Part shown: positions 523-40,791 of the stretch, piece after piece
Layout of the letters: every line of letters starts with the position of its first letter
Position numbering within the stretch: the stretch's first letter is position 1
Assembly (NCBI GenBank): GCA_946617625.1
Contig: CAMOKF010000002.1
Location: 1,354 to 65,353, forward strand
Direction: 5' to 3'
DNA from: an uncultured Bacillota bacterium
Lineage (GTDB): Bacteria; Bacillota_I; Bacilli_A; RF39; UBA660
DNA length: 64,000 bases
Program-made: the position numbers and the translations under genes
The notes under the pieces: generated by a model
What the model saw: the letters and a program-made list of their open reading frames with translations, nothing else
What the model was told of the DNA's origin: nothing
The model's database searches: none

Positions 523-1875
523 ATGATTAAGAAGAATAAAAAGAATAATAAAAAGAAGAAAAAATTAATTCCATATGGTAAAAAGGAATTAATTTTTAAT
601 GTATTGAGTTTAGTTATTGCTATTGGTGTTGGCTTATATTTTGGAGGTAGAAGTTTCTATTATTATAGTAAACAAGCTTTTAAAATTGAAAAGGATAGTG
701 TGACGTTAAATGGTACTATTACTAATAGTAATTATACTGTTACTGAAGGAGATGGTTTACATCAGGATACTGATGGATACTATTTTAAAGGTAATGTAGA
801 TAATAACTATGTAACATTTGCTAATAGGACTTTTAGAATCATTAGAGTTAATAACGATGGTAGTGTTAAAGCAATTACTGATTCTATTGCTACAGAATTT
901 ATGTGGGGAGAAGATAGTAATTATGTTAATTCTAATCTAGATAATTGGTTAGATAAAAAAGAAAAGATTGAAGGTAGTGGAGTATATTATGATACAATAC
1001 CTTATGTATCTGATTTCTTAGTTAAGACTGAATATAATATACCTACTTTTGATGGTAAGAGTGTTACTGCTGGAGAAGAAAAACTTAGTAGTTATGTTAG
1101 TACTTTAAGTATAAAAGATTATAGTAATGCTAATGGTAAAAATAGTTTTTTAAATATTTCAAAATATTTTTGGTTAATTGGTGTTAATGAAAGTGGAAAT
1201 AATTTATATGTTTCAGAGGATGGTTCATTATTAGATGGTAATTTATATGAATCATATGGTATTAGACCTGTTATTACTTTTAAACCTGATTTATTAATAT
1301 CAAGTGGAGTTGGAACTAAAGATGATCCTTATGTTGTTGATCAAGGTGAAAAAGTTAACATGGTAGATAATTATGTAATGATTGGTAATGATAAGTGGAT
1401 AGTTTACTATGATAAAGGTAATTTAGTTAAAGTTGTATTTGCAGGTTTTGTTGGAGATAAAACTGTTAGTTATAGTAATACTAATAGTGAATATGATCCA
1501 ACTGATAAAAAGAGTGCTGCTCATTATTTAAATAGCTTATTTAATAATTATCCCTATAAAAAATATTTTAATGATTTAACTTTATATACTGGAGAAGTAA
1601 GTAGTGATACTTCATTAGATTTTACTAATATTTATTCTTCATATGTTACTGTAGGTTGGGGTATGCCTAATTTATTCGATTATAATAATTCTGGTAATGA
1701 TGAGTATTACTTATCTAATACGGTATCTACTGTAGGTAGTAACGTATTAGTTTATCGTAATTATGGATTACTTGAAGAAGCTTCTGTTAAAGATATAAAG
1801 AATATTGCTCCTATAGGATGCATATCTAAAGATAAAATAGAAAAAGATAAAAAAGGTATATATAGAGTGAGGTAA
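523..1875 (+). CDS. membrane-anchored extracytoplasmic protein, function unknown
   Basis: Lys-rich N-terminal tail and one TM helix (LIFNVLSLVIAIGVGLYFGG), then a ~400-aa Asn/Tyr/Ser-rich domain. First gene of a tightly packed three-gene envelope cluster. Confidence 0.6.
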   Translation: MIKKNKKNNKKKKKLIPYGKKELIFNVLSLVIAIGVGLYFGGRSFYYYSKQAFKIEKDSVTLNGTITNSNYTVTEGDGLHQDTDGYYFKGNVDNNYVTFANRTFRIIRVNNDGSVKAITDSIATEFMWGEDSNYVNSNLDNWLDKKEKIEGSGVYYDTIPYVSDFLVKTEYNIPTFDGKSVTAGEEKLSSYVSTLSIKDYSNANGKNSFLNISKYFWLIGVNESGNNLYVSEDGSLLDGNLYESYGIRPVITFKPDLLISSGVGTKDDPYVVDQGEKVNMVDNYVMIGNDKWIVYYDKGNLVKVVFAGFVGDKTVSYSNTNSEYDPTDKKSAAHYLNSLFNNYPYKKYFNDLTLYTGEVSSDTSLDFTNIYSSYVTVGWGMPNLFDYNNSGNDEYYLSNTVSTVGSNVLVYRNYGLLEEASVKDIKNIAPIGCISKDKIEKDKKGIYRVR

Positions 1876-1879
1876 ATCA

Positions 1880-2950
1880 ATGAAAAGAAAAGAAAAGAAA
1901 GAAAAGAAAAAACGACATGTTCATAAATTTACTTTTGGTGTTATATTCTTAGACTTAGTAGTAATTGCTGCTTTAGTTGTTATTAACACATCTGAGTTTA
2001 AAGCTTTTTGGATTCCAACTGCAATGACTACTATGACTCATAAGTATTTAGCATATACTTTATATGATGAAGATACTGTTAATAAAGTTATGAGTGAAAA
2101 CTATATTGAACAGAATACTGATGAAGTAAATTTAGATGATGTTGTAATTGGTGATACTTCTAATAAGACTCATTTTGTAAGTAAATATGAAGAAGATCTT
2201 TATACTAGAACTCCTGGAAATGAAGTTTATAAAATTATTAGATTAGAAGAAAAGAAATTTAAAGGTTATTTAACAGTTATTTATGATCCCGCAGATGTTG
2301 ATTTAGCTATTCCTCAAAAACTTGGTAAAGCTGGTGAAAGTGTTAATACACTTTGTAAGAAGAATGGTGGATTAGTTGGAATCAATGGTGGTGGATTTGA
2401 AGACCTAGATGGTTGGGGTAATGGATCTATACCATATGGTGCTATTATAAATAATGGTGAACTTGTTTGGACTCATTCAGGTGGATCTGGACAATTAATT
2501 GGTTTTACTAAAGATCATAAATTATGGTTAACAAATGATGATCCTGCAACTGCTATTAGTAAAGGAATGGAAGATGCTGTTGAGTTTGGACCTAATTTAA
2601 TCGTTAATGGTAAAGTATCTAAAATCCATGGTGATGGTGGATGGGGTACTGCACCTAGAAGTGTAATTGCTCAAAGAAGAGATGGAATTGTTTTATTCTT
2701 AATAATTGAAGGTAGATTACCTGGATATAGTATAGGTGCTACTATGAATGATGTTATAGAAATGTTACTTAGATATGGAGCATATAATGCTGCTAATTTA
2801 GATGGTGGTGCTTCTTCTACTATGTCTGTAAATGGTAAATTATATAATAAACCTAGTGCAGGTGGAGAATATGGTGGTAGAACTGTATCAAATGCATGGA
2901 TTGCTACTAATAAAACTAGAAAAGCCTGTGAAGGTTGTATAACATATTAA
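1880..2950 (+). CDS. phosphodiester glycosidase family protein (DUF2233/NAGPA-like)
   Basis: Lys-rich tail plus TM anchor. GINGGGF and ANLDGGASSTM motifs are typical of this family. Starts 4 nt after the previous stop. Confidence 0.7.
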   Translation: MKRKEKKEKKKRHVHKFTFGVIFLDLVVIAALVVINTSEFKAFWIPTAMTTMTHKYLAYTLYDEDTVNKVMSENYIEQNTDEVNLDDVVIGDTSNKTHFVSKYEEDLYTRTPGNEVYKIIRLEEKKFKGYLTVIYDPADVDLAIPQKLGKAGESVNTLCKKNGGLVGINGGGFEDLDGWGNGSIPYGAIINNGELVWTHSGGSGQLIGFTKDHKLWLTNDDPATAISKGMEDAVEFGPNLIVNGKVSKIHGDGGWGTAPRSVIAQRRDGIVLFLIIEGRLPGYSIGATMNDVIEMLLRYGAYNAANLDGGASSTMSVNGKLYNKPSAGGEYGGRTVSNAWIATNKTRKACEGCITY

Positions 2951-2962
2951 TAGGAGACTAAT

Positions 2963-4225
2963 ATGAAAAAGAGAAAGAAATTTTTAGTAATTATAATTTT
3001 TATTCTAATTGCTTTAGGTACTTTTTCTTTTTTTGTTTATAAAGAACATAAAGAAGAAGTTGATAAGCAATTAGTTTTAGCTAAGCAAAAATTATTAACA
3101 AAAGATATTAAAAGTCATTTTAGTAATAAAGTAATAGTTAGTAAAGATGCAAAACTATATAAGAAAAATGATAATAAATACGAAGAAATAGGTATTGTTT
3201 ATAAAGATACAAAGTTAGTTTTAACTAATAAGAATAACGAAAGTATAGATTATAATACAAAGTATTTTTATATAGAAAGTATAGATCTTTATATTAGTTA
3301 TAAAGATGTTTCAAAATATGATGAAGATATAACTATAGATGATAGATATAAAAAATATTTATTGTTTGATTTAAATATTAAGACTAATGATAGTGTTACT
3401 TTATATAATAAAGATAAAACTAAAAAGGAATATAAATTAAATTATTCATTAGATTTACCTGTAATAATAAAAGATGATGATGGTGTTTTTGTTGAATACT
3501 TTAATAATTTATATTTTATTAATAATAGTGATATAGCTTCAACTTATGAAAAAAGTAATAATCAAGAAATAGAAGCAAATAGTATTCCTGTTACTTGTTA
3601 TCACTTTATATATTTCCCTGGAGATACTAGTTGTAATGAAATAATATGTCATAGTGAAGAGCAGATAAGATCTCATTTTAATTATTTATCTTCTAATAAT
3701 TATTTTACTATTAATACTACTGAGTTAAGATTATTTATTGAAGGTAAACTTAGATTACCTAAGAATACTATTTTAGTTACTATTGATGATGGAGCTAGAG
3801 CTGAAAAATTTATTCCTTTACTTGAAGAGTATAAATTAAATGCTACTTTATTTTTAGTTTCTTCATGGTATCCTAAAGAAACATTTGCTTCTCCTTATAT
3901 GGAAATTGCTTCTCATACACATGATTTACATACTGGTGGTAAATGCCCTGGAGGACAAGGTGGTTGGATTAAATGTTTAGAGCATGATGCTTTATTAGCA
4001 GATTTTAAAAAGAGTAGAGAAACATTAGATAATACTGAGGCTTTTTGTTATCCATTTTATGAATACAATAATTATACTATTAGTGTATTAAAAGAAGCTG
4101 GATTTAAAATGGCATTTGCTGGTGGACAAAAGAAAGCTACTAGAGGTATAGATTTATTCCAAATACCTAGAATTACTATTCATAATAGTACTACATTAAA
4201 TGAATATATTAATTATATTAGTTAA
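2963..4225 (+). CDS. polysaccharide deacetylase (NodB-homology) with N-terminal membrane anchor
   Basis: TM anchor; C-terminal VTIDDGARAE (NodB motif 1 Asp-Asp) and ASHTHDLH histidine motif. Followed by a terminator at 4225-4247. Confidence 0.8.
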   Translation: MKKRKKFLVIIIFILIALGTFSFFVYKEHKEEVDKQLVLAKQKLLTKDIKSHFSNKVIVSKDAKLYKKNDNKYEEIGIVYKDTKLVLTNKNNESIDYNTKYFYIESIDLYISYKDVSKYDEDITIDDRYKKYLLFDLNIKTNDSVTLYNKDKTKKEYKLNYSLDLPVIIKDDDGVFVEYFNNLYFINNSDIASTYEKSNNQEIEANSIPVTCYHFIYFPGDTSCNEIICHSEEQIRSHFNYLSSNNYFTINTTELRLFIEGKLRLPKNTILVTIDDGARAEKFIPLLEEYKLNATLFLVSSWYPKETFASPYMEIASHTHDLHTGGKCPGGQGGWIKCLEHDALLADFKKSRETLDNTEAFCYPFYEYNNYTISVLKEAGFKMAFAGGQKKATRGIDLFQIPRITIHNSTTLNEYINYIS

Positions 4226-4298: not shown

Positions 4299-5309
4299 AT
4301 GAATGAAAATCAAGATGTTATAAATATTGTTGAATCTGGTGTGTTAGGTTTTGTAGTAGGAGATGCCTTTGGAGTACCAGTAGAATTTACTATAAGAAGT
4401 CAAAGAAAAAGAGATTTACTTACTGAAATGATAGGTAATGGTAGTCATCCTGTTCCAGAAGGTACATGGAGTGATGATAGTTCAATGACTATAGCAACAT
4501 TAGACTCTATTCGTGAATGTGAAAATATTAATTACGACGATATTATGAGTAAGTATTGTGATTGGGTATTTAATAAAAAATATACTGCTACTGATGAAGT
4601 ATTTGATGTTGGTTCTACTACAGGATATGCTGTTGATAATTATTATAAGAATAAAATGCACCCAGTAGATTGTGGTGGGAAAGATGAGATGTCTAATGGT
4701 AATGGATCACTTATGAGAATGTTACCTATAGCTTATTATCTACATTTTAGTAACATTGATTATTCTACAAAGGTTGATATAGTTACTAATTATTCTTCAT
4801 TAACTCATGGACATGAAGTTAGTATATTAGGTTGTTTGATTTATAATGATTATATGAATAATCTTTTGAATGGTATGAGTAAAGAAGATGCTTATTATGA
4901 TTTAGATATTGAAAGATATAGGTTACATTTTTCTGAAGAAACTGTTGAAAAATATAGAAGAATTCTAAAACATGAATTAAAAGAGTTAGACGAAGATTCA
5001 ATAAAATCTACTGGTTATGTTGTTGATACATTAGAAGCTAGTATGTGGACTTTACTTAATACAAATAGTTATGAAGAAGCAATAGTTGAAGCTGTTTCTT
5101 TAGGAGATGATACTGATACTGTAGCAGCTATAACAGGTAGTATGGCTGGTACTATATACGGTGTTAATTCTATTCCAGAAAGATGGTTATCTAAAGTTAG
5201 AAAAGTGGATTATATTAAAAATATTGTTACTGGATTTTGTGATGTTATTAATAAGAACAACTCTAAAGTATATGGATTTATTAATAAACCAGAATTTTTT
5301 GATTTATAA
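4299..5309 (+). CDS. ADP-ribosylglycohydrolase family protein
   Basis: GDAFGVPVEF, WSDDSSMT and GDDTDTVAAITG motifs of the DraG/ARH fold. AGGAG RBS upstream. Confidence 0.85.
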   Translation: MNENQDVINIVESGVLGFVVGDAFGVPVEFTIRSQRKRDLLTEMIGNGSHPVPEGTWSDDSSMTIATLDSIRECENINYDDIMSKYCDWVFNKKYTATDEVFDVGSTTGYAVDNYYKNKMHPVDCGGKDEMSNGNGSLMRMLPIAYYLHFSNIDYSTKVDIVTNYSSLTHGHEVSILGCLIYNDYMNNLLNGMSKEDAYYDLDIERYRLHFSEETVEKYRRILKHELKELDEDSIKSTGYVVDTLEASMWTLLNTNSYEEAIVEAVSLGDDTDTVAAITGSMAGTIYGVNSIPERWLSKVRKVDYIKNIVTGFCDVINKNNSKVYGFINKPEFFDL

Positions 5310-5314
5310 AATAA

Positions 5315-5347
5315 GCGATTAGTATTTGTCTAATCGTCTTTTTTTTT
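5315..5347 (+). terminator. intrinsic terminator
   Basis: CGATTAG/CTAATCG stem plus T-run. Confidence 0.7.
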
Positions 5348-5403
5348 ATTGTTATTTGTTATATAATTAATACAGTTGAGATATAGATATAGGAGGTTTT
5401 TAC

Positions 5404-8400
5404 ATGAAGAAAATTATGGATGGTAACGAGGCAGCTGCTTATGTCTCATATAACTTTACTGAAGTAGCTGGAATATATCCTATTACTCCAGCATCTCCAA
5501 TGGCAGAGCTTACTGATAAATGGAGTAATGAAGGTAAATTAAACTACTTTGATACACCTGTTAAAGTGGTAGAGATGGAGAGTGAAGCTGGTGCAGCTGG
5601 AATGGTACATGGATCTTTACTATCTGGATGTTTGACTACTACTTATACAGCTAGTCAAGGATTATTATTAATGATTCCTAATATGTATAAGATAGCTGGT
5701 GAATTATTACCTTGTGTTATAAATGTAGCAGCTAGAAGTTTAGCTACACATGCTTTATCTATTTTTGGAGATCATCAAGATGTATATGCTGCTAGAAGTA
5801 CAGGTTTTGCAATGCTTGCATCATCTTCAGTACAACAAGTAATGGATTTAACAGGAGTAGCACATTTATCTGCTATAAAGTCTAGTGTACCTTTTATTAA
5901 CTTTTTTGATGGTTTTAGAACAAGTCATGAATTACAAAAAGTAGATGTAATTGATACTGAAAAATTAAAAAAACTAATTGACAAGAAAAAATTAGATGAA
6001 TTTAGATCAAAAGCTTTAAATCCATATAATCCAATGACTCATGGTGCTGCTCAAAATGAAGATGTTTATTTTCAAAATACAGAAGTAAGAAATAAATATT
6101 ATGATGAAGTTCCAGATATTGTTAATGCTTATATGGAAGAAGTTAGTAAAATAACTGGAGAAGACTATAAGCCTTTTAATTACTATGGAAGCCCATCTGC
6201 TACTAAAGTTATTGTTGCAATGGGATCTGTTTGCGAAACAATAAAAGAAACAATTGATTATTTAGTTGAAAAAAGAGGAGAAAATGTTGGTTTAATAGAA
6301 GTTCATTTATATAGACCTTTTAGTACTAAATATTTCTTAAAAGCTTTACCTAAGACAGTTAAGAAGATTGCTGTATTAGATAGAACTAAAGAAGCTGGTG
6401 GAAATGGAGAACCATTATTCTTAGATGTTGTTAAAACTATTAAAGAAGTAGATGCTAAAGTAAGTGTATATGGTGGTAGATATGGTTTATCTAGTAAGAA
6501 TACTACTCCAGCTATGATAAAAGGATTATTTGATATTCTAGATACTAGAGATATGCATAATAATTTTACTTTAGGTATTAAAGATGATGTTACTAATTTA
6601 TCTATTCCTTATGATAATAAATTTTATATTCCTACAAATAATATAGAATTCTTAGTATATGGTTATGGTAGTGATGGTATGGTAAGTGCTTCTAAAGATT
6701 TAATGAAGATTACTGGTACTTATACTAATGCTTATGTACAAGGTTATTTCCAATATGATTCTAAGAAGAGTGGTGGAGTTACTATATCTAATTTAAGATT
6801 TAGTAAGAAACCTGTAAGAAGTACTTATTATGTTGAAAAAGCTACATTAATTGTTTGTACTAAAGATTCTTATTTAAAGAAACTAAGAATGCTTGAGAAG
6901 ATTAAAGATAAGGGAATATTTATAATTAATACTAATAAAAATCATGATGAAGTTTTAAGTATGATGAGTAATCATGATAAAAAAATATTACAAACTAGAA
7001 ATATTAAAATATTTACTATAGATGCTAATAAGATTGCTAATGAAGTAGGGCTTAATGGTAAAATTAGTACAATTATGGAAACATTAATTTTTAAGATGGG
7101 TAAAATAATTGAATTTGACTTTGCTGTTGGAAAGATTAAAGAGAATTTAACTACTAAATTTGCTAATAAAGGTGGAGATATAATATCTAAAAACATTAGA
7201 GCAATTGATTTAGCTTTAGATGGTTTATCTCCTTTAAAACTTCCTTATGTAGATTTTGATGAAGATTATGGTAATAAGAAAAATATGTATCAAATTATTG
7301 ATTCAATGGAAGGTGATACTTTACCTGTTAGTAGCTTTGTTAAAATGGCTAATGGTGAGATAGAAGCTGGAACTAGTAGTTATGATAAACGTGATAGTAG
7401 TGATGTTGTACCTAGTTATTGTTCAGAAAATTGTATTTCATGTAATTTATGTAGTTTAGTTTGCCCTCATGGAGTTATTAGACCATACTTATTAAATGAA
7501 AAAGAGGTAATAGATGCTCCTGATAGTCTAAATAATAATTTGATTAATGCAAATATTAAAGATAAGGATTATAAATTCTCTATTGGTGTTAGTACTGCTG
7601 ATTGTACAGGTTGTGGACTATGTAGTGAGATATGTCCAGGTAAGAAGGGTGCTAAAGCACTTGTTATGAAGATGAAAGAAGAGTTAAAAGCTTCTAAACA
7701 AGATGTTGATTACAAATATTTAATTGAAGAAGTAAGTGAAAAAGAAAATGTAATGCCTACTAATACAGTTAAAGGTAGTCAATTTGTTTCTCCTAAATTT
7801 CAATTTCCAGGTGCTTGTGCAGGATGTGGAGAAACTCCTTATTTAAAATTAGTTAGTCAATTATTTGGAGATAGGATGGTAGTTGCTAATGCTACTGGAT
7901 GTTCATCTATATATAGTGCAAGTATGCCATCTATGGCATGGAAGACTCCATGGAGCAATTCTTTATTTGAAGATAATGCTGAATTTGGTTATGGTATGAA
8001 AATAGCTGATATAGCTATGAAGAATAGAATAGTGACAATTATTAATAATAATATTAAAGTAGTTAAAAAGAGTGAGCAACCTATATATAAAGCTTATGCT
8101 GAAAATATTACTGAAGAAACAGCTAATGAATTAATGAAAGTAATTGATGAAACTAGATTAGAAGAATTATTAAAATTGAAAGATTTTATAATGCCTAGAA
8201 GTTATTGGTTAATAGGTGGTGATGGTTGGGCATATGACATTGGTTATAATGGAATAGATCATGTCTTAGCTAATCACGAAAATATTAATATTTTAGTTTT
8301 AGATACTGAAGTATATTCTAATACTGGTGGACAAGCTTCTAAATCAACTAGAACTGGTGCTGTTGCTAAATTTGCTAGTGCTGGTAAAAATATTGCTAAA

Positions 8401-30296: not shown

Positions 30297-30447
30297 ATGT
30301 TATCAAGAGCGGACGAGAGAATCGGCTTTATGACTCCGCAGCAACCTATTAAGTTAGGTGCTAATACCGACAAAGTAGAAGTACTTTGAATGATGATTAT
30401 TAAGTTATTAATAGTTAAAGTTCATGTACTACATGAACTTTTTTTTA
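30297..30447 (+). promoter_or_regulatory. SAM-I (S-box) riboswitch with intrinsic terminator
   Basis: TTATCAAGAGCGGACGAGAGAATCGGCTTTATGACTCCGCAGCAACC...GGTGCTAATACCGACAAAG matches the S-box core. Terminator AAGTTCATGT/ACATGAACTT (30418-30440) plus a T-run. Located upstream of metK. Confidence 0.9.
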
Positions 30448-30481: not shown

Positions 30482-31591
30482 ATGAAAAGATTATTTACAA
30501 GTGAAAGTGTGACAGAAGGTCATCCTGATAAATTATGTGATTTAATATCTGATAGTTTATTAGATGAATATTTAAGGGGAGATAGTAATTCTAGAGTAGC
30601 TATTGAAACTGTTGCTGGTAAAGATACTATTTTTATTACTGGAGAAGTTACTAGTAAAAGTGAAGTAGATGTAGAAAAAGTAGTTAGAGAAACTATTAAA
30701 TCTATTGGTTATTTTGGTGATTGTGATATTAATTATGAAACATGTAATATTATTATTAATATGACTACACAGTCTCCTGATATTTCTTTAGGTACTAATG
30801 ATTTAGTAGGTGGAGCAGGTGATCAAGGGATAATGTTTGGATATGCATGTTCTGAAACAGAAGAGTTAATGCCTTTACCTATTATGTTAGCTCATAAATT
30901 ATCTAAAAGACTTAGTGAAGTTAGAAAAAACAATATTGTAGAAGGAATTGGTCCAGATGGTAAAACTCAGGTTACTGTTTTATATGATGAAGACAAAGTA
31001 ATTGGAATTGATACTATTTTGATTTCTACTCAACATAGAGATAATAAAGATGTTGAGCTACTAAAAAAAGAAATTATTGAAAATGTTATTAACTATGTAG
31101 TTGATAATAGTTTAATAATGGATTCTACTAAAATTTTAATTAATCCTACAGGAAGATTTGTTATTGGAGGACCTTTAGGAGATTCTGGTTTAACTGGTAG
31201 AAAGATTATTGTTGATACATATGGAGGCTATGCTAGACATGGTGGTGGAGCCTTTTCTGGAAAAGATCCAACTAAAGTAGATAGAAGTGCTGCATATATG
31301 GCTAGATTACTTGCTAAAAATGTTGTATGGAATGGATATGCAAAAAAATGTGAAATACAATTAAGTTATGCTATAGGTATTCCTGAACCAATCTCTATAT
31401 ATATTGAAACATTTAATACTAATACTATTAGTGATGAAGAAATAATTGAAAAAATAAAGAGTAAGTTTGATTTAACTCCTAGAGGTATTATTGATTATTT
31501 AGGATTAAGAGAACCAATATATAAGACTACAACTAATTATGGTCATTTTGGTAAGAATGACCTTCCATGGGAGAGAAAAGTTGAATTTTAA
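30482..31591 (+). CDS. metK: S-adenosylmethionine synthetase
   Basis: [35 protein letters not shown] motifs. Preceded by a SAM-I riboswitch. Confidence 0.95.
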
Positions 31592-36613: not shown

Positions 36614-36673
36614 CTTAGTTTTTACTAGGTTTTTTTATTTTTATGATATAATCTACATTGAGGAGTGAGAGTA

Positions 36674-37630
36674 ATGGCTAATGAAGAATTTGATATAAAA
36701 TCAAAAAGAATTAAAATGCTTAATACTTATGGAGAAAATTTTCAAGATAAAGAATATATTACTAATCCTGCTATTGGTAGAGATGAACAAATAAAACAAT
36801 TAATTTTAATCTTACTTACACCAGATAAAAGTGCTGTATTAGTTGGTAAACCTGGTGTTGGTAAAACTGCTACTGTAGAAGGTTTAGCTTATCGTATACA
36901 AAAAGGTTTAGTTCCAGATGTATTAAAAGGATATAGTGTTATAAAGATAAATACTTCTTCACTTCTTGGAGTAGATCCAGTAACTGGTGAAGCTAAAGTT
37001 CAAACATTACTTGATGAATTAAAAAATCAAAGTAAATTAATTTTATTTATTGATGAAATACATACTTTAATGGGTTCTAAAGGAGAAGCTTTAGATTTTG
37101 CGAATATGTTTAAGCCTGCTTTGGATAGAGGAGATATTAAAGTAATAGGTGCTACTACTACTGAAGAGTATGAAAGATATATTTTAAGAGATAAAGCATT
37201 TGTTAGACGTTTCCAAAAAGTAGAAATATCTGAACCTACTAGAAATGAAAATATTCAAATACTAATGGGTACTCTTCCTAAAATAGAAAAAAGAACTGGT
37301 GTTAAAATGAACTATACTTCTTACGTTATTCGTAAAATGATGGAGTTTATTACTGATATAACTTCTGAATATAAAAGAATATATGAAATAGGTTCTAGAT
37401 ATCCAGATGTTTCATTAACACTTGTACAAGAAGCTTTTTCTAATGCTTTATTTAATAATAGAAATTATGTAAAAGCTGAAGATTTTAGAAATGCTATTGT
37501 TAATAGTAAGAATATATATCCAGATGTTATTAGAAAAGCATTACCTGAATTTGATACTATTTTTGCAGAACAACTTAATAGTGAAACTGGTGATGTAAAG
37601 ATAGACAGATTAGATGATGCAGTAGAATAA
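36674..37630 (+). CDS. stand-alone Clp/Hsp100-type AAA+ module (D1-like only)
   Basis: GRDEQIKQLILIL, Walker A GKPGVGKTA, Walker B ILFIDEIHTL and GATTTEEYERYILRDKAFVRRFQKV, as in ClpA/B/C D1. It is only ~318 aa, with no N-domain, M-domain or D2. It has its own RBS and terminator. Confidence 0.75.
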   Translation: MANEEFDIKSKRIKMLNTYGENFQDKEYITNPAIGRDEQIKQLILILLTPDKSAVLVGKPGVGKTATVEGLAYRIQKGLVPDVLKGYSVIKINTSSLLGVDPVTGEAKVQTLLDELKNQSKLILFIDEIHTLMGSKGEALDFANMFKPALDRGDIKVIGATTTEEYERYILRDKAFVRRFQKVEISEPTRNENIQILMGTLPKIEKRTGVKMNYTSYVIRKMMEFITDITSEYKRIYEIGSRYPDVSLTLVQEAFSNALFNNRNYVKAEDFRNAIVNSKNIYPDVIRKALPEFDTIFAEQLNSETGDVKIDRLDDAVE

Positions 37631-37660
37631 AATGTCTCTTTAAAAGAGACATTTTTTTTA
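37631..37660 (+). terminator. intrinsic terminator after the Clp-like AAA+ gene
   Basis: AATGTCTCTT/AAGAGACATT 10-bp stem plus T8. Confidence 0.85.
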
Positions 37661-37684
37661 TTTTTTTATTTTATAATTAATTCA

Positions 37685-38284
37685 TCAATTGATTAATGTT
37701 CTTTGATTTGTAAATTAAGAACTATGTGAAAAACTACCACAAAGTAGCATAGATGTTATCTCGCTCTTGCTAGTTAATAGGAGACTATTAATGGATCGAG
37801 TGTAATCTATTAGTGATAATAGATTTGAGAGTGGTTACCACGAAAGAGATAATAGTAGTCTTATATAAGAGTGTAAAGGTAGGGAGACAATCGGGTTAAT
37901 CTTCGAAAGACCATTAGTAGAAATACAAAGTGGGTTAGTAGAACAACTTAAATAGTATCTGTGGTGGGTACAGTTGATGTTGAAGACCATAAAAACCTTA
38001 AATTAACTTGCAGTTGAGGTATAGCGATATACTATAAGATTGAATCCCCGTTTTCTGGCACAAATCTGCAATAGTAAGATAATGAATGAGTAATTATTTG
38101 TATCCTAGTGTGTGTTGGAAATGTTGGTATTATCCCAATGCAGTTTAAGAGCTTTGGCTTAGGTAAGAGCGGAAAAAGAGTCGCTATCTTTCAGGACTTT
38201 TACTTACTGGTGACTGAATATGCATGTTTATATATGATTAATGTGAGGAACATCTTAATTTACTAATCAAAGGGCACTAATTGA
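37685..38284 (+). ncRNA. candidate large structured non-coding RNA (~600 nt), family unidentified
   Basis: 765-bp gap with no ORF of 60 aa or more in any frame. Hand counts give 30-40% G+C per 60-nt block, with G well above C on the + strand. 37701-37720 pairs with 38254-38273 (19/20), and TCAATT 37685-90 pairs with AATTGA 38279-84. Internal helices: 37804-11/37818-25 (8 bp perfect), 38008-13/38066-71, 38020-24/38032-36, 38162-67/38203-08. Strand assignment is tentative. Confidence 0.5.
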
Positions 38285-38395
38285 CTGATTAGTAATTTTA
38301 TGATAAAATTAATGCGATTTAGAAATTTTTTAATCTAAATTCTAGAAAAAGACAATCTCTCATGTAGGAAATGTATTAATAATGGAGGGATTAAT

Positions 38396-38767
38396 ATGAA
38401 TATAGAATTAAAAAAATATCTAGATCAAACAAAAACAGTTAGTTTTAAAGATTTACTTTATTTCTTTCTTGAAAGAAATGGTGAGTCAAACTCAACTGTA
38501 TATAATCGTGTAGACATTGACAGAAGAGTTTTTTCTAAAGTTTTTGGTTATAAACCTTATAATTTAGGAAAAAGCAATATTTTAAAATTATGTTTATCAC
38601 TTAAGCTTGACTTGAGTGATTCATCAAAATTACTAAATAGTGCAGGGTATTCCCTTAGTACTACAAGTGATTTTGACTTAATTATAAGATATTGCATATC
38701 AAATAAAATCTATGATTTTAATACTGTCAATGGTTTACTATACGATTATGCGAAGACTACTTTCTAG
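38396..38767 (+). CDS. hypothetical small protein (possible HTH-like)
   Basis: 123 aa with GGAGGGA RBS and a terminator. The segment NSTVYNRVDIDRRVFSKV..LLNSAGYSLS resembles short DNA-binding proteins. Weak call. Confidence 0.4.
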   Translation: MNIELKKYLDQTKTVSFKDLLYFFLERNGESNSTVYNRVDIDRRVFSKVFGYKPYNLGKSNILKLCLSLKLDLSDSSKLLNSAGYSLSTTSDFDLIIRYCISNKIYDFNTVNGLLYDYAKTTF

Positions 38768-38793
38768 TATTAACTTGAAGTAGTCTTTTTTTG
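38753..38793 (+). terminator. intrinsic terminator
   Basis: AAGACTAC/GTAGTCTT stem with a large loop, plus T7. Confidence 0.6.
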
Positions 38794-38865
38794 TTTATTT
38801 GCTTTTTTTATTATTTTATGCATATAATAATATTAGAATGTTAATAGAAAGGTTGTAATAACATT

Positions 38866-39025
38866 TAAGCGCCTGGAGTAATTTTAAAAATATCTTACTT
38901 GACGAGGTTGGTAGTGATCGAAAGATTCGGCGGATGCTACTGCGGATAAGTGGTTCGTTAGATATATAGTAAAAAGTAAAATCAAAATTACAACAAAGTA
39001 TATATCCTCACTAATTGTTTTAATA
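38866..39025 (+). ncRNA. glmS ribozyme/riboswitch
   Basis: A|GCGCC cleavage-site context (A38868|G38869) and core CTTGACGAGGTTGGTAGTGATCGAAAGATTCGGCGGATGCTACTGCGG, closely matching the Bacillus-type glmS ribozyme. Immediately upstream of glmS. Confidence 0.85.
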
Positions 39026-39039
39026 GTGGAGGAAAATAT

Positions 39040-40791
39040 ATGTGTGGAATAGTTGGATATGTTGGTGAGCAACATCCAGAAAAAGTTTTAATTGACGGTT
39101 TAAAAAAATTGGAATATAGAGGTTATGATTCTAGCGGTATAGCTTTAATGGGACAAAAAGATGTTCAAATAATTAAAAGTGTAGGTAGAATTATTAATCT
39201 TGAAGAGACTTTAAAGAAATCTAAAATAATTGATTCTAATATGGGTATAGCCCATACTAGATGGGCTACTCATGGAGGAGTAACAGAAGCTAATGCTCAT
39301 CCTCATAAAATAGGTAAAGTTACATTAGTTCATAATGGTATTATTGAAAATGCTAATGTATTAAGAGAAGAGTTAAAAAAAGAAAAAGTTAAATTTAATA
39401 GTGAAACTGATACAGAAGTTGCAGTTGCATTAATAAATAAATACTATGATGGAAATGCTTTGTATGCTATTAAGAAAGCTACTTCTAAACTAAAAGGAAG
39501 CTATGCTTTTGCTATTATGTTTGATGGTGATGATAAGCTTTATGCTATAAGAAAAGATTCTCCATTAATTATTGGTTATGGAAAAGGTGAAAATTTTATT
39601 GCTTCAGACATAGCTGCAATTATTAATTATACAAAGGATTATAGTTTACTTGCTGAAGGTGAAATTGCAATTCTTGATAAAGAAAAAATAGAAGTATTTA
39701 GTGATGGTGAAATTATAAAGAAGAAAATTATTCATTCTAATATTACTTCTTTAGATGCTGATAAATGTGGATATGATCATTTTATGTTAAAAGAGATTAT
39801 GGAAGAGCCTAAAGTATTAGATGGATTATTTAAAAGATATAGTGATTTTTCTTTATTACCTGATATAACAAAGTATAAAGAAATACATATAGTAGCTTGT
39901 GGATCTGCTATGTATGCAGGAATTGTTGGAGCTAGTTTAATTGAAGAAAAGTGTAATATAAAATGTTATGTAGAATGTGCATCAGAATATCGTTATAAAA
40001 AAGTTATTTATGACAGGAAAACTTTGGTTATATTAATTTCTCAATCAGGAGAGACTGCTGATACAATTGCTGCAATGAGAAAAGCAAAGGATGAAAAAAT
40101 AGATACACTTGCTATTGTTAATGTTGAAACTAGTACTATTGCTAGAGAATGTGATAAGGCATTATTTATTGGAGCTGGAGTAGAGGTTGCAGTAGCTACT
40201 ACTAAAGCATATATTTTACAAGTAGCAATGCTTTCTTTATTAGTAATTAGAGCTACAAATGATAAAAAAGCTATGGAAGAAGCTAAAAAAATACCTGGAG
40301 AAGTAAATAATATTTTAGGTGAAAGAGAAATATTTGAGGGTGTTGCTAAAGATATTTATAAAGCTAGAGATGCATTCTTTATAGGTAGAGGAATTGATTA
40401 TGCAATGTGTATGGAAGGAAGTTTAAAATTAAAAGAAGTTTCTTATATACATAGTGATGCTTTTCAAGCTGGTGAATTAAAACATGGAACAATTTCTTTA
40501 ATAGAAAAAGGTGTACCAGTTTTTGCAATTATTACAGATGAAAGAATTAAGGATAAGACTGAATCAAATGTTGTAGAAGTTGAATCACGTGATGCGTTTG
40601 TATATACAATAACTAATGATCCTGAAGTACCTAATCATAGATTTAGATATGTTGTACCTAAGGTAAGTCCTTATTTTCAAGCTTTATTAGTTGTTCCTGT
40701 ATTACAATTAATAGGGTATTATACTGCTAAATTTAAAGGACTAGATATAGATAAGCCTAGAAACTTAGCTAAATCCGTTACAGTAGAATAG
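39040..40791 (+). CDS. glmS: glutamine--fructose-6-phosphate aminotransferase
   Basis: MCGIVGY N-terminal nucleophile, two SIS domains (ISQSGETADT), C-terminal KPRNLAKSVTVE. Preceded by the glmS ribozyme. Confidence 0.95.
   Translation: MCGIVGYVGEQHPEKVLIDGLKKLEYRGYDSSGIALMGQKDVQIIKSVGRIINLEETLKKSKIIDSNMGIAHTRWATHGGVTEANAHPHKIGKVTLVHNGIIENANVLREELKKEKVKFNSETDTEVAVALINKYYDGNALYAIKKATSKLKGSYAFAIMFDGDDKLYAIRKDSPLIIGYGKGENFIASDIAAIINYTKDYSLLAEGEIAILDKEKIEVFSDGEIIKKKIIHSNITSLDADKCGYDHFMLKEIMEEPKVLDGLFKRYSDFSLLPDITKYKEIHIVACGSAMYAGIVGASLIEEKCNIKCYVECASEYRYKKVIYDRKTLVILISQSGETADTIAAMRKAKDEKIDTLAIVNVETSTIARECDKALFIGAGVEVAVATTKAYILQVAMLSLLVIRATNDKKAMEEAKKIPGEVNNILGEREIFEGVAKDIYKARDAFFIGRGIDYAMCMEGSLKLKEVSYIHSDAFQAGELKHGTISLIEKGVPVFAIITDERIKDKTESNVVEVESRDAFVYTITNDPEVPNHRFRYVVPKVSPYFQALLVVPVLQLIGYYTAKFKGLDIDKPRNLAKSVTVE

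Follow-up and report, generated by a model that had tools for sequence, protein, structure and literature searches.

Large cage-forming RNAs of the ROOL family

Only a few natural RNAs are known to form protein-free cages that exceed the ribosome in size, and ROOL is one of them. ROOL and GOLLD RNAs both tend toward tRNA-associated and prophage locations. The ROOL family (Rfam RF03087) was treated by Weinberg et al. (2017; PMC5737381) and Cousin et al. (2017), and its members also occur in regions unlike prophages (PMC5737381). ROOL RNAs assemble into cages in the absence of protein (PMC12286853, PMC12990946, PMC12515178). Octamers were observed by cryo-EM for env-120 (9MDS), E. faecalis (9J3T), and Firmicutes CAG:227, and a hexamer for L. 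salivarius (9J6Y), the last being hexameric instead of octameric because of a small difference in secondary structure. In the ROOL cryo-EM structure the linker is disordered and points into the cage, and the RNA is stand-alone and abundant (PMC12286853). The pseudoknots of the family have been given as three (Weinberg 2017) or as P10 and P13 (Kretsch 2025).

The window, that is, the whole 64-kb stretch of DNA that was analysed, comes from an uncultured, AT-rich bacterium of the Bacilli/'Tenericutes' type and has its closest genome records among metagenome-assembled genomes labelled Bacilli, Mollicutes, Erysipelotrichaceae, and Candidatus Faecimonas, originating from the rumen and from the gut of rabbits, chickens, and humans; assemblies whose record names contain SHIW14 and STEW19 carry the same sequence. 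The best explanation for nt 37684–38289 (+) of the window, with a probability of about 0.93, is that they constitute a ROOL RNA gene which has its own promoter, would form a cage by homology, and arose as a lineage-specific insertion. The segment belongs to the ROOL family, possesses a conserved structure, and stands alone between its neighbours, while its cage-forming ability and stoichiometry are extrapolated by analogy. It is a new member, in a chromosomal context free of phage genes and tRNA genes, of a family that was itself already known.

Identification of the ROOL gene

Between the stop of a gene for an AAA+ protein (nt 37630) and the ATG at nt 38396 lies a gap of 765 bp in which no ORF reaches 60 aa; the two longest encode 51 aa (nt 37835–37990, −) and 52 aa (nt 38108–38266, +), and eight near-identical metagenome contigs, on which genes had been called independently, likewise have no gene in this gap. 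An earlier note, made from the sequence, had singled out the same ORF-free interval as a candidate large structured noncoding RNA of the size class of OLE, ROOL, and GOLLD. Its remark that the interval is richer in G+C than the flanks was borne out (33–36% inside the element versus 23–26% in the flanks). The excess of G over C on the plus strand, which it had also reported, is real but not specific to the element, since the GC skew is positive over the entire 36–40 kb stretch. The folding energy was −150 kcal/mol for the plus strand (z = −3.4) and −110.7 kcal/mol for the minus strand (z = −2.7).

When nt 37550–38450 (901 nt) were scanned against all Rfam 15 families with relaxed filters, nt 37698–38272 (+) matched ROOL (RF03087) with 125.2 bits and an E-value of 3.1e-27, the gathering score being 99.1. 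The match spans model positions 1–574 of 574 and is therefore full-length and not truncated; the next best family reached an E-value of 0.88. The other models that had been proposed for comparison (GOLLD, OLE, HEARO, raiA, and the group I/II introns) gave no match at E-values up to 10 on either strand of the same 901 nt, and the family left nameless in the earlier note is ROOL. The element measures 575 nt as the Rfam core and 606 nt with the extended closing helix P1 described below.

The match was unreported under faster settings. Rfam scans in gathering mode with fast filters returned only the glmS ribozyme and the SAM riboswitch for the whole window, and only the glmS ribozyme for a 2.2-kb segment. 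An E-value-mode scan with relaxed filters, run on 27 kb at once, likewise missed a 139-bit ROOL on the viral contig L097, so that a negative Rfam scan of eight loci with large gaps is uninformative. These misses are a filter problem and not the result of a weak match; both ROOLs came up only in relaxed-filter scans of ~0.9 kb.

The closing helix P1

The two ends of the element are complementary. CTTTGATTTGTAAATTAAGA (nt 37701–37720) pairs with TCTTAATTTACTAATCAAAG (nt 38253–38272) at 19 of 20 positions, with a T-T mismatch at 37709/38264. A 20-bp closing helix had been described before with this number of matches; the helix stands, but its 3′ arm lies one base below the position then given (nt 38254–38273). 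A repeat search identified the longest inverted repeat of the region as nt 37675–37720/38253–38298 (46 nt, 76%). Within it, the full P1 runs ungapped in the register i + j = 75973, with a 5′ strand at nt 37684–37720 (+) that comprises the Rfam part from nt 37704, the CTTTGA/TCAAAG pairs, and an ungapped extension. The 3′ strand, including the extension, occupies nt 38253–38289 (+), as indicated by the inverted repeat, the model mapping, and the fold; the minimum-energy fold of the plus strand closes with exactly this helix. P1 of the window holds four G-U pairs, which would be A-C mismatches if the minus strand were transcribed.

Ungapped continuation of P1 for 6–12 bp past the Rfam model was observed in all eight copies of the RNA, with differing flank sequences. 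Examples are GTT/GGC in the window, ATAATAGT/ATTATTAT in L086, and, after a one-base bulge, TTAAGCAA/TTGCTTAA in L048a. An alternative extension through TCAATT (nt 37685–37690) and AATTGA (nt 38279–38284), put forward in the earlier note, has its positions right and is possible with an asymmetric 10/5 loop, but the ungapped register is better supported. A hairpin at nt 38257–38269/38286–38298 was considered as a terminator competing with P1 and was dropped, as L001, the one copy inspected by eye, has no complementary downstream arm.

Internal helices and covariation

Mapping the 159 pairs of the Rfam consensus onto the window gave 122 canonical and 19 non-canonical pairs, the remaining 18 being lost to deletions; at model positions ~220–235, a hairpin of the model is replaced by an insertion of 30 nt. 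The hairpin at nt 37804–37825 (+), earlier read as a perfect 8-bp hairpin (37804–11/37818–25), has a 9-bp stem (37804–12/37817–25) capped by a GUGA tetraloop. It is a helix of the ROOL model (helix 8), 6 of whose 11 pairs change on both sides. The pairing of nt 38162–67 with 38203–08, also seen previously, likewise is a helix of the model.

Related copies were available from species genomes (L001, L002, and L048, the last with two copies), Logan contigs (L082 and L086), and the viral contig L097. In a 5-row clade alignment, 86.1% of the cells were paired, compared with 40–48% when the partners were slid by 1–3 columns, and 36 pairs had changed on both sides, compared with 5–11. In an 8-row alignment that included the phage copy, 83.2% of the cells were paired versus 39–50% after the same sliding, and 55 pairs had changed on both sides versus 12–22; these alignments hold 6 independent sequences beyond that of the window, and some cells are counted twice because the cores of L048a and L048b are identical. 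None of 500 shuffles reached the observed values in either alignment. The consensus helices of ROOL are maintained by compensatory substitutions in the related copies.

UUGCAG (nt 38008–38013, +) can pair with CUGCAA (nt 38066–38071, +), the latter lying within the invariant block GCACAAATCTGCAATA. This complementarity had been noticed as one of several nested helices; it is present, and since it crosses the consensus helix 37882–93/38040–51, it would be a pseudoknot. Both halves of the candidate are invariant in all eight copies, and covariation is thus impossible; the Rfam consensus letters aligned to them (uuGcc/Ggcaa) are also complementary. The least conserved part of the RNA is an indel-rich linker with approximate limits at nt 38073–38106 (+), falling at columns ~431–500 of alignment A2 and in the large loop of the model. 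By its position in the model, this linker probably corresponds to the disordered, inward-facing loop of the solved ROOLs.

Transcription signals and the adjacent gene p123

The AAA+ gene ends at an intrinsic terminator, nt 37629–37665 (+), with a 12-bp stem (nt 37629–37655), a 3-nt loop, and a T run. A strong terminator had been claimed at this place, and it was the sole terminator-like site in nt 37550–38450; ROOL is set apart by it from the transcription unit that precedes. TATAAT at nt 37672–37677 (+), 7–8 nt before the extended P1, was read from the sequence as the putative −10 box of ROOL, with no good −35 element. The hexamers aligned at columns 10–17 of alignment A1 in five copies are TATAAT, TATAAC, TATAAT, TATAAT, and TATAGT. 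The box was not listed by a promoter scan because the −35 is poor.

Downstream of ROOL, the gene p123 (nt 38396–38767, +) is preceded by a sigma-70-type promoter at nt 38281–38309 (+), composed of TTGACT, 17 nt, and TG-n-TAAAAT (TGATAAAAT; 10 of 12 matches, with the TG present). This promoter abuts the 3′ strand of P1, its −35 overlapping the 3′ strand of the extension, and it is conserved in all relatives, including the ROOL-less locus L003 (alignment A5). ROOL stands alone as a unit, with a terminator before it and the promoter of p123 after it.

ROOL and p123 have the same orientation, no terminator-like site was found between them in the scan of nt 37550–38450, and in all loci of the clade, with three flanking contexts, ROOL is succeeded by a homolog of p123. 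Such an arrangement would be expected if ROOL were a cis-acting leader of p123, that is, a very long 5′ UTR or regulatory RNA, and not an independent RNA gene. This is very improbable, as p123 is served by a conserved promoter of its own, located after ROOL and kept where ROOL is missing, ROOL is found without p123 in phage L097 and as the first of the two tandem copies in L048, and other ROOLs are abundant RNAs that stand alone (PMC12286853).

As an independent RNA gene, ROOL would be transcribed on the plus strand from its own −10-dependent promoter (nt 37672–37677), with a start predicted at about nt 37685 (range 37684–37686), which would be the first base of the extended P1.

The product predicted for p123 is an all-helical protein of 123 aa with a divergent helix-turn-helix (HTH) of the Cro/C1 (XRE) type, as indicated by profile matches of the family and by the fold. 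The p123 of the window itself had no Pfam or NCBIfam match, while 5 of 9 family members matched PF13443 (best E-value 1.1e-5). The AlphaFold model had a pLDDT of 76, and the top Foldseek hits were the XRE/Cro regulators C.BclI, C.AhdI, HipB, and 434 Cro, with target-normalised TM-scores of 0.60–0.77 but E-values of at least 0.07; a profile search against PDB sequences gave nothing meaningful. The suspicion voiced earlier that a small HTH protein is encoded downstream agrees with these matches. The family is tiny, with 6 clusters among 5.8 billion proteins, and at the two sites where the contig extends upstream of them, all homologs of at least 58% identity retrieved by protein search were located right after a ROOL.

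The ROOL-p123 pair is flanked by the AAA+ gene and glmS or by the AAA+ gene and a histidine kinase gene. In a third context, found by a metagenome motif scan (L121 3660–4217, −; L123 1473–2030, +; and L119), an HD protein gene and a 222-aa ORF precede the pair, and genes for an APH-type kinase, a HAD hydrolase, and a histidine phosphatase follow it. The two genes do not occur as a pair in L003, which has p123 without ROOL, or in phage L097, which has ROOL without p123. The leader of p123 contains the conserved motif GATTTAGAAATTT with an imperfect inverted repeat, ATTTAGA-N10-TCTAAAT, at nt 38316–38344 (+), a candidate operator for an HTH protein. An 18-bp near-palindrome, ATTCATCAATTGATTAAT, was also observed at nt 37680–37697, over the predicted start of ROOL. 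From their sequences, both sites are possible HTH operators; palindromes are common in DNA as AT-rich as that of the window. That ROOL and p123 form a two-gene module is unlikely, and their adjacency may simply have been inherited from a common ancestor of a single clade; that the two are functionally linked is a lead and not a finding.

Genomic setting and the AAA+-glmS slot

No tRNA gene was found in the 64-kb window, and no phage gene lies within ~13 kb of ROOL, the neighbours being housekeeping genes. Upstream are a SAM riboswitch (S box; nt 30297–30399, 72.1 bits) preceding metK (nt 30482–31591), a LytTR two-component pair, and genes for a cold-shock protein, a CDF transporter, RdgB, and the AAA+ protein. 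After ROOL and p123 come a glmS ribozyme (nt 38857–39015, 77.1 bits) directly upstream of glmS (nt 39040–40791) and genes for EamA, Lgt, a sortase, and ABC transporters. The glmS ribozyme was present at the same place in 7 of 8 related loci scanned.

The AAA+ protein (nt 36665–37630, 321 aa) stands alone, and its match to the ClpA/ClpB/ClpV models is confined to their D1 region (positions ~150–410 of 734–853), in agreement with its first description as a stand-alone Clp D1-type module. Its identity is 75–89% among 80 species of uncultured Bacilli from gut and rumen, in which its gene is almost always a neighbour of glmS. About 76 of the 80 species keep the order AAA+ then glmS, most of them without ROOL. 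The slot between the two genes contains nothing beyond the glmS leader in about 36 loci and one ORF in about 35 loci (mostly 350–417 aa, a few shorter); a 217-aa secreted protein with p123 is encoded there in one locus (L003), and ROOL with p123 in the window, L002, and L048. In L001, ROOL and p123 follow the AAA+ gene, with a histidine kinase gene downstream in place of glmS. With its changing content, the slot (nt 37631–39039 in the window) is a cargo hot spot in these ~76 species; in L024, the only one whose slot ORF was scanned, the ORF begins with a zinc ribbon.

Iterative nhmmer searches of the 80 genome loci detected ROOL only in L001, L002, and L048, its absence from the large-gap loci resting on nhmmer and on gaps being short or filled with ORFs. 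That ROOL and the AAA+ protein are functionally linked was considered and rejected, since the AAA+ gene is present with or without ROOL. ROOL is a lineage-specific occupant of a variable slot and not a partner of the AAA+ protein. In L048, two tandem copies of 573 nt (5017–5589 and 5696–6268) are 100% identical and 106 nt apart; their flanks differ, and each copy is provided with a separate −10 box and with a P1 extension whose two strands complement each other. The tandem arose by duplication very recently, or else it is an artefact of assembly.

Presence and absence at one site among related species, the two identical copies in L048, and ends that form a long inverted repeat are also features of a MITE-like non-autonomous mobile element, an alternative that the earlier note had itself raised, in which terminal inverted repeats would have been read as a closing helix. 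The window contains a single copy in 64 kb and shows no target-site duplication, the only flanking direct-repeat candidate being 11/13 identical and located inside the AAA+ gene, which argues against such an element. Each related locus likewise has one copy at the same place. Moreover, the internal helices covary throughout and not at the ends alone, the terminal G-U pairs are valid on one strand only, and the match to the ROOL model is full-length. A MITE-like origin is hence extremely improbable. A decayed protein-coding gene, or a chance match of AT-rich DNA to a long covariance model of low information, is suggested by the large composition correction of the match (bias 40.7 bits) and its nonappearance in standard fast-filter scans but has practically no probability, given that 125.2 bits is the score after that correction, that structure-specific covariation lies far above the slid and shuffled controls, that the gap has neither an ORF of at least 60 aa nor a gene call, and that the RNA sequence is conserved where the flanking proteins are only 50–89% identical.

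Proposed assembly and significance

Taken as a ROOL RNA gene, the locus would have arisen by lineage-specific insertion of ROOL into the variable AAA+-glmS slot, either along with the HTH gene or beside it. Its transcript would fold into the multi-junction ROOL architecture as a flat monomer, in which the very long P1 (~37 positions with 4 mismatches) is predicted to zip both RNA ends together. By analogy with the solved structures, the RNA would then self-assemble without protein into a hollow homo-oligomeric cage, a hexamer or an octamer, with the linker directed inward.

The copy in the window adds no new kind of RNA, and its value lies in the presence/absence series, the HTH neighbour, and an annotation blind spot. 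The ~76 species that share the AAA+-glmS locus, most of them lacking ROOL, provide a natural comparison of presence and absence. The constant position of ROOL beside a very rare HTH gene offers a testable lead to a regulator or partner; should p123 control or sense ROOL, a ROOL RNA would for the first time be linked to a protein that regulates it or acts as its partner. As the speed filters of Rfam can miss ROOLs scoring well above threshold in AT-rich genomes, the family is probably under-annotated among Mollicutes-like lineages and Bacilli of the gut and rumen. A chromosomal setting without phage genes or tRNAs was already noted as possible by the describers of ROOL (PMC5737381).

Comparison with known systems

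The window copy differs from the frequent setting of the ROOL family in having no nearby tRNA genes or prophage; since ROOLs are known outside prophages (PMC5737381), this neighbourhood does not exclude membership. Published suggestions on the role of ROOL, including phage and tRNA links and encapsulation, are speculative, and the locus studied here gives the phage/tRNA link no support. Searching with blastn, the ROOL of the window had no match among GenBank phages or PLSDB plasmids, and it is therefore a distant relative at the sequence level.

A phage counterpart was nevertheless available for comparison. Exact-motif scans of viral contigs yielded 24 loci, among which ROOL was found in L097 only (IMGVR_UViG_3300033463_004103; nt 1600–2224, 139.3 bits). 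This copy has the invariant blocks TGCAGTTGA and GCACAAATCTGCAATA in common with that of the window, and its helices covary with those of the latter. In contrast to the window, it lies directly upstream of the genes for the small and large terminase subunits, ROOL and these genes together occupying nt 1600–4198; its linker is ~50 nt longer, and no p123 homolog accompanies it.

GOLLD and OLE resemble ROOL as large ornate bacterial or phage RNAs forming RNA-only homo-oligomers, but they have different sequences and secondary structures, and their models do not match here. Relative to the Rfam model of ROOL, the window copy has a P1 that is 6–12 bp longer and an insertion of 30 nt in place of one hairpin. 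In other respects it resembles the family: a multi-junction architecture closed by P1, hairpins capped by GNRA-type loops, a hypervariable linker loop, a core of 575 nt against a family mean of 581, and a host of the rumen/gut Firmicutes type. Belonging by covariance model to the same family as the ROOLs solved by cryo-EM, the RNA would be expected, by analogy, to share with them a flat monomer, an inward linker, and a hollow cage.
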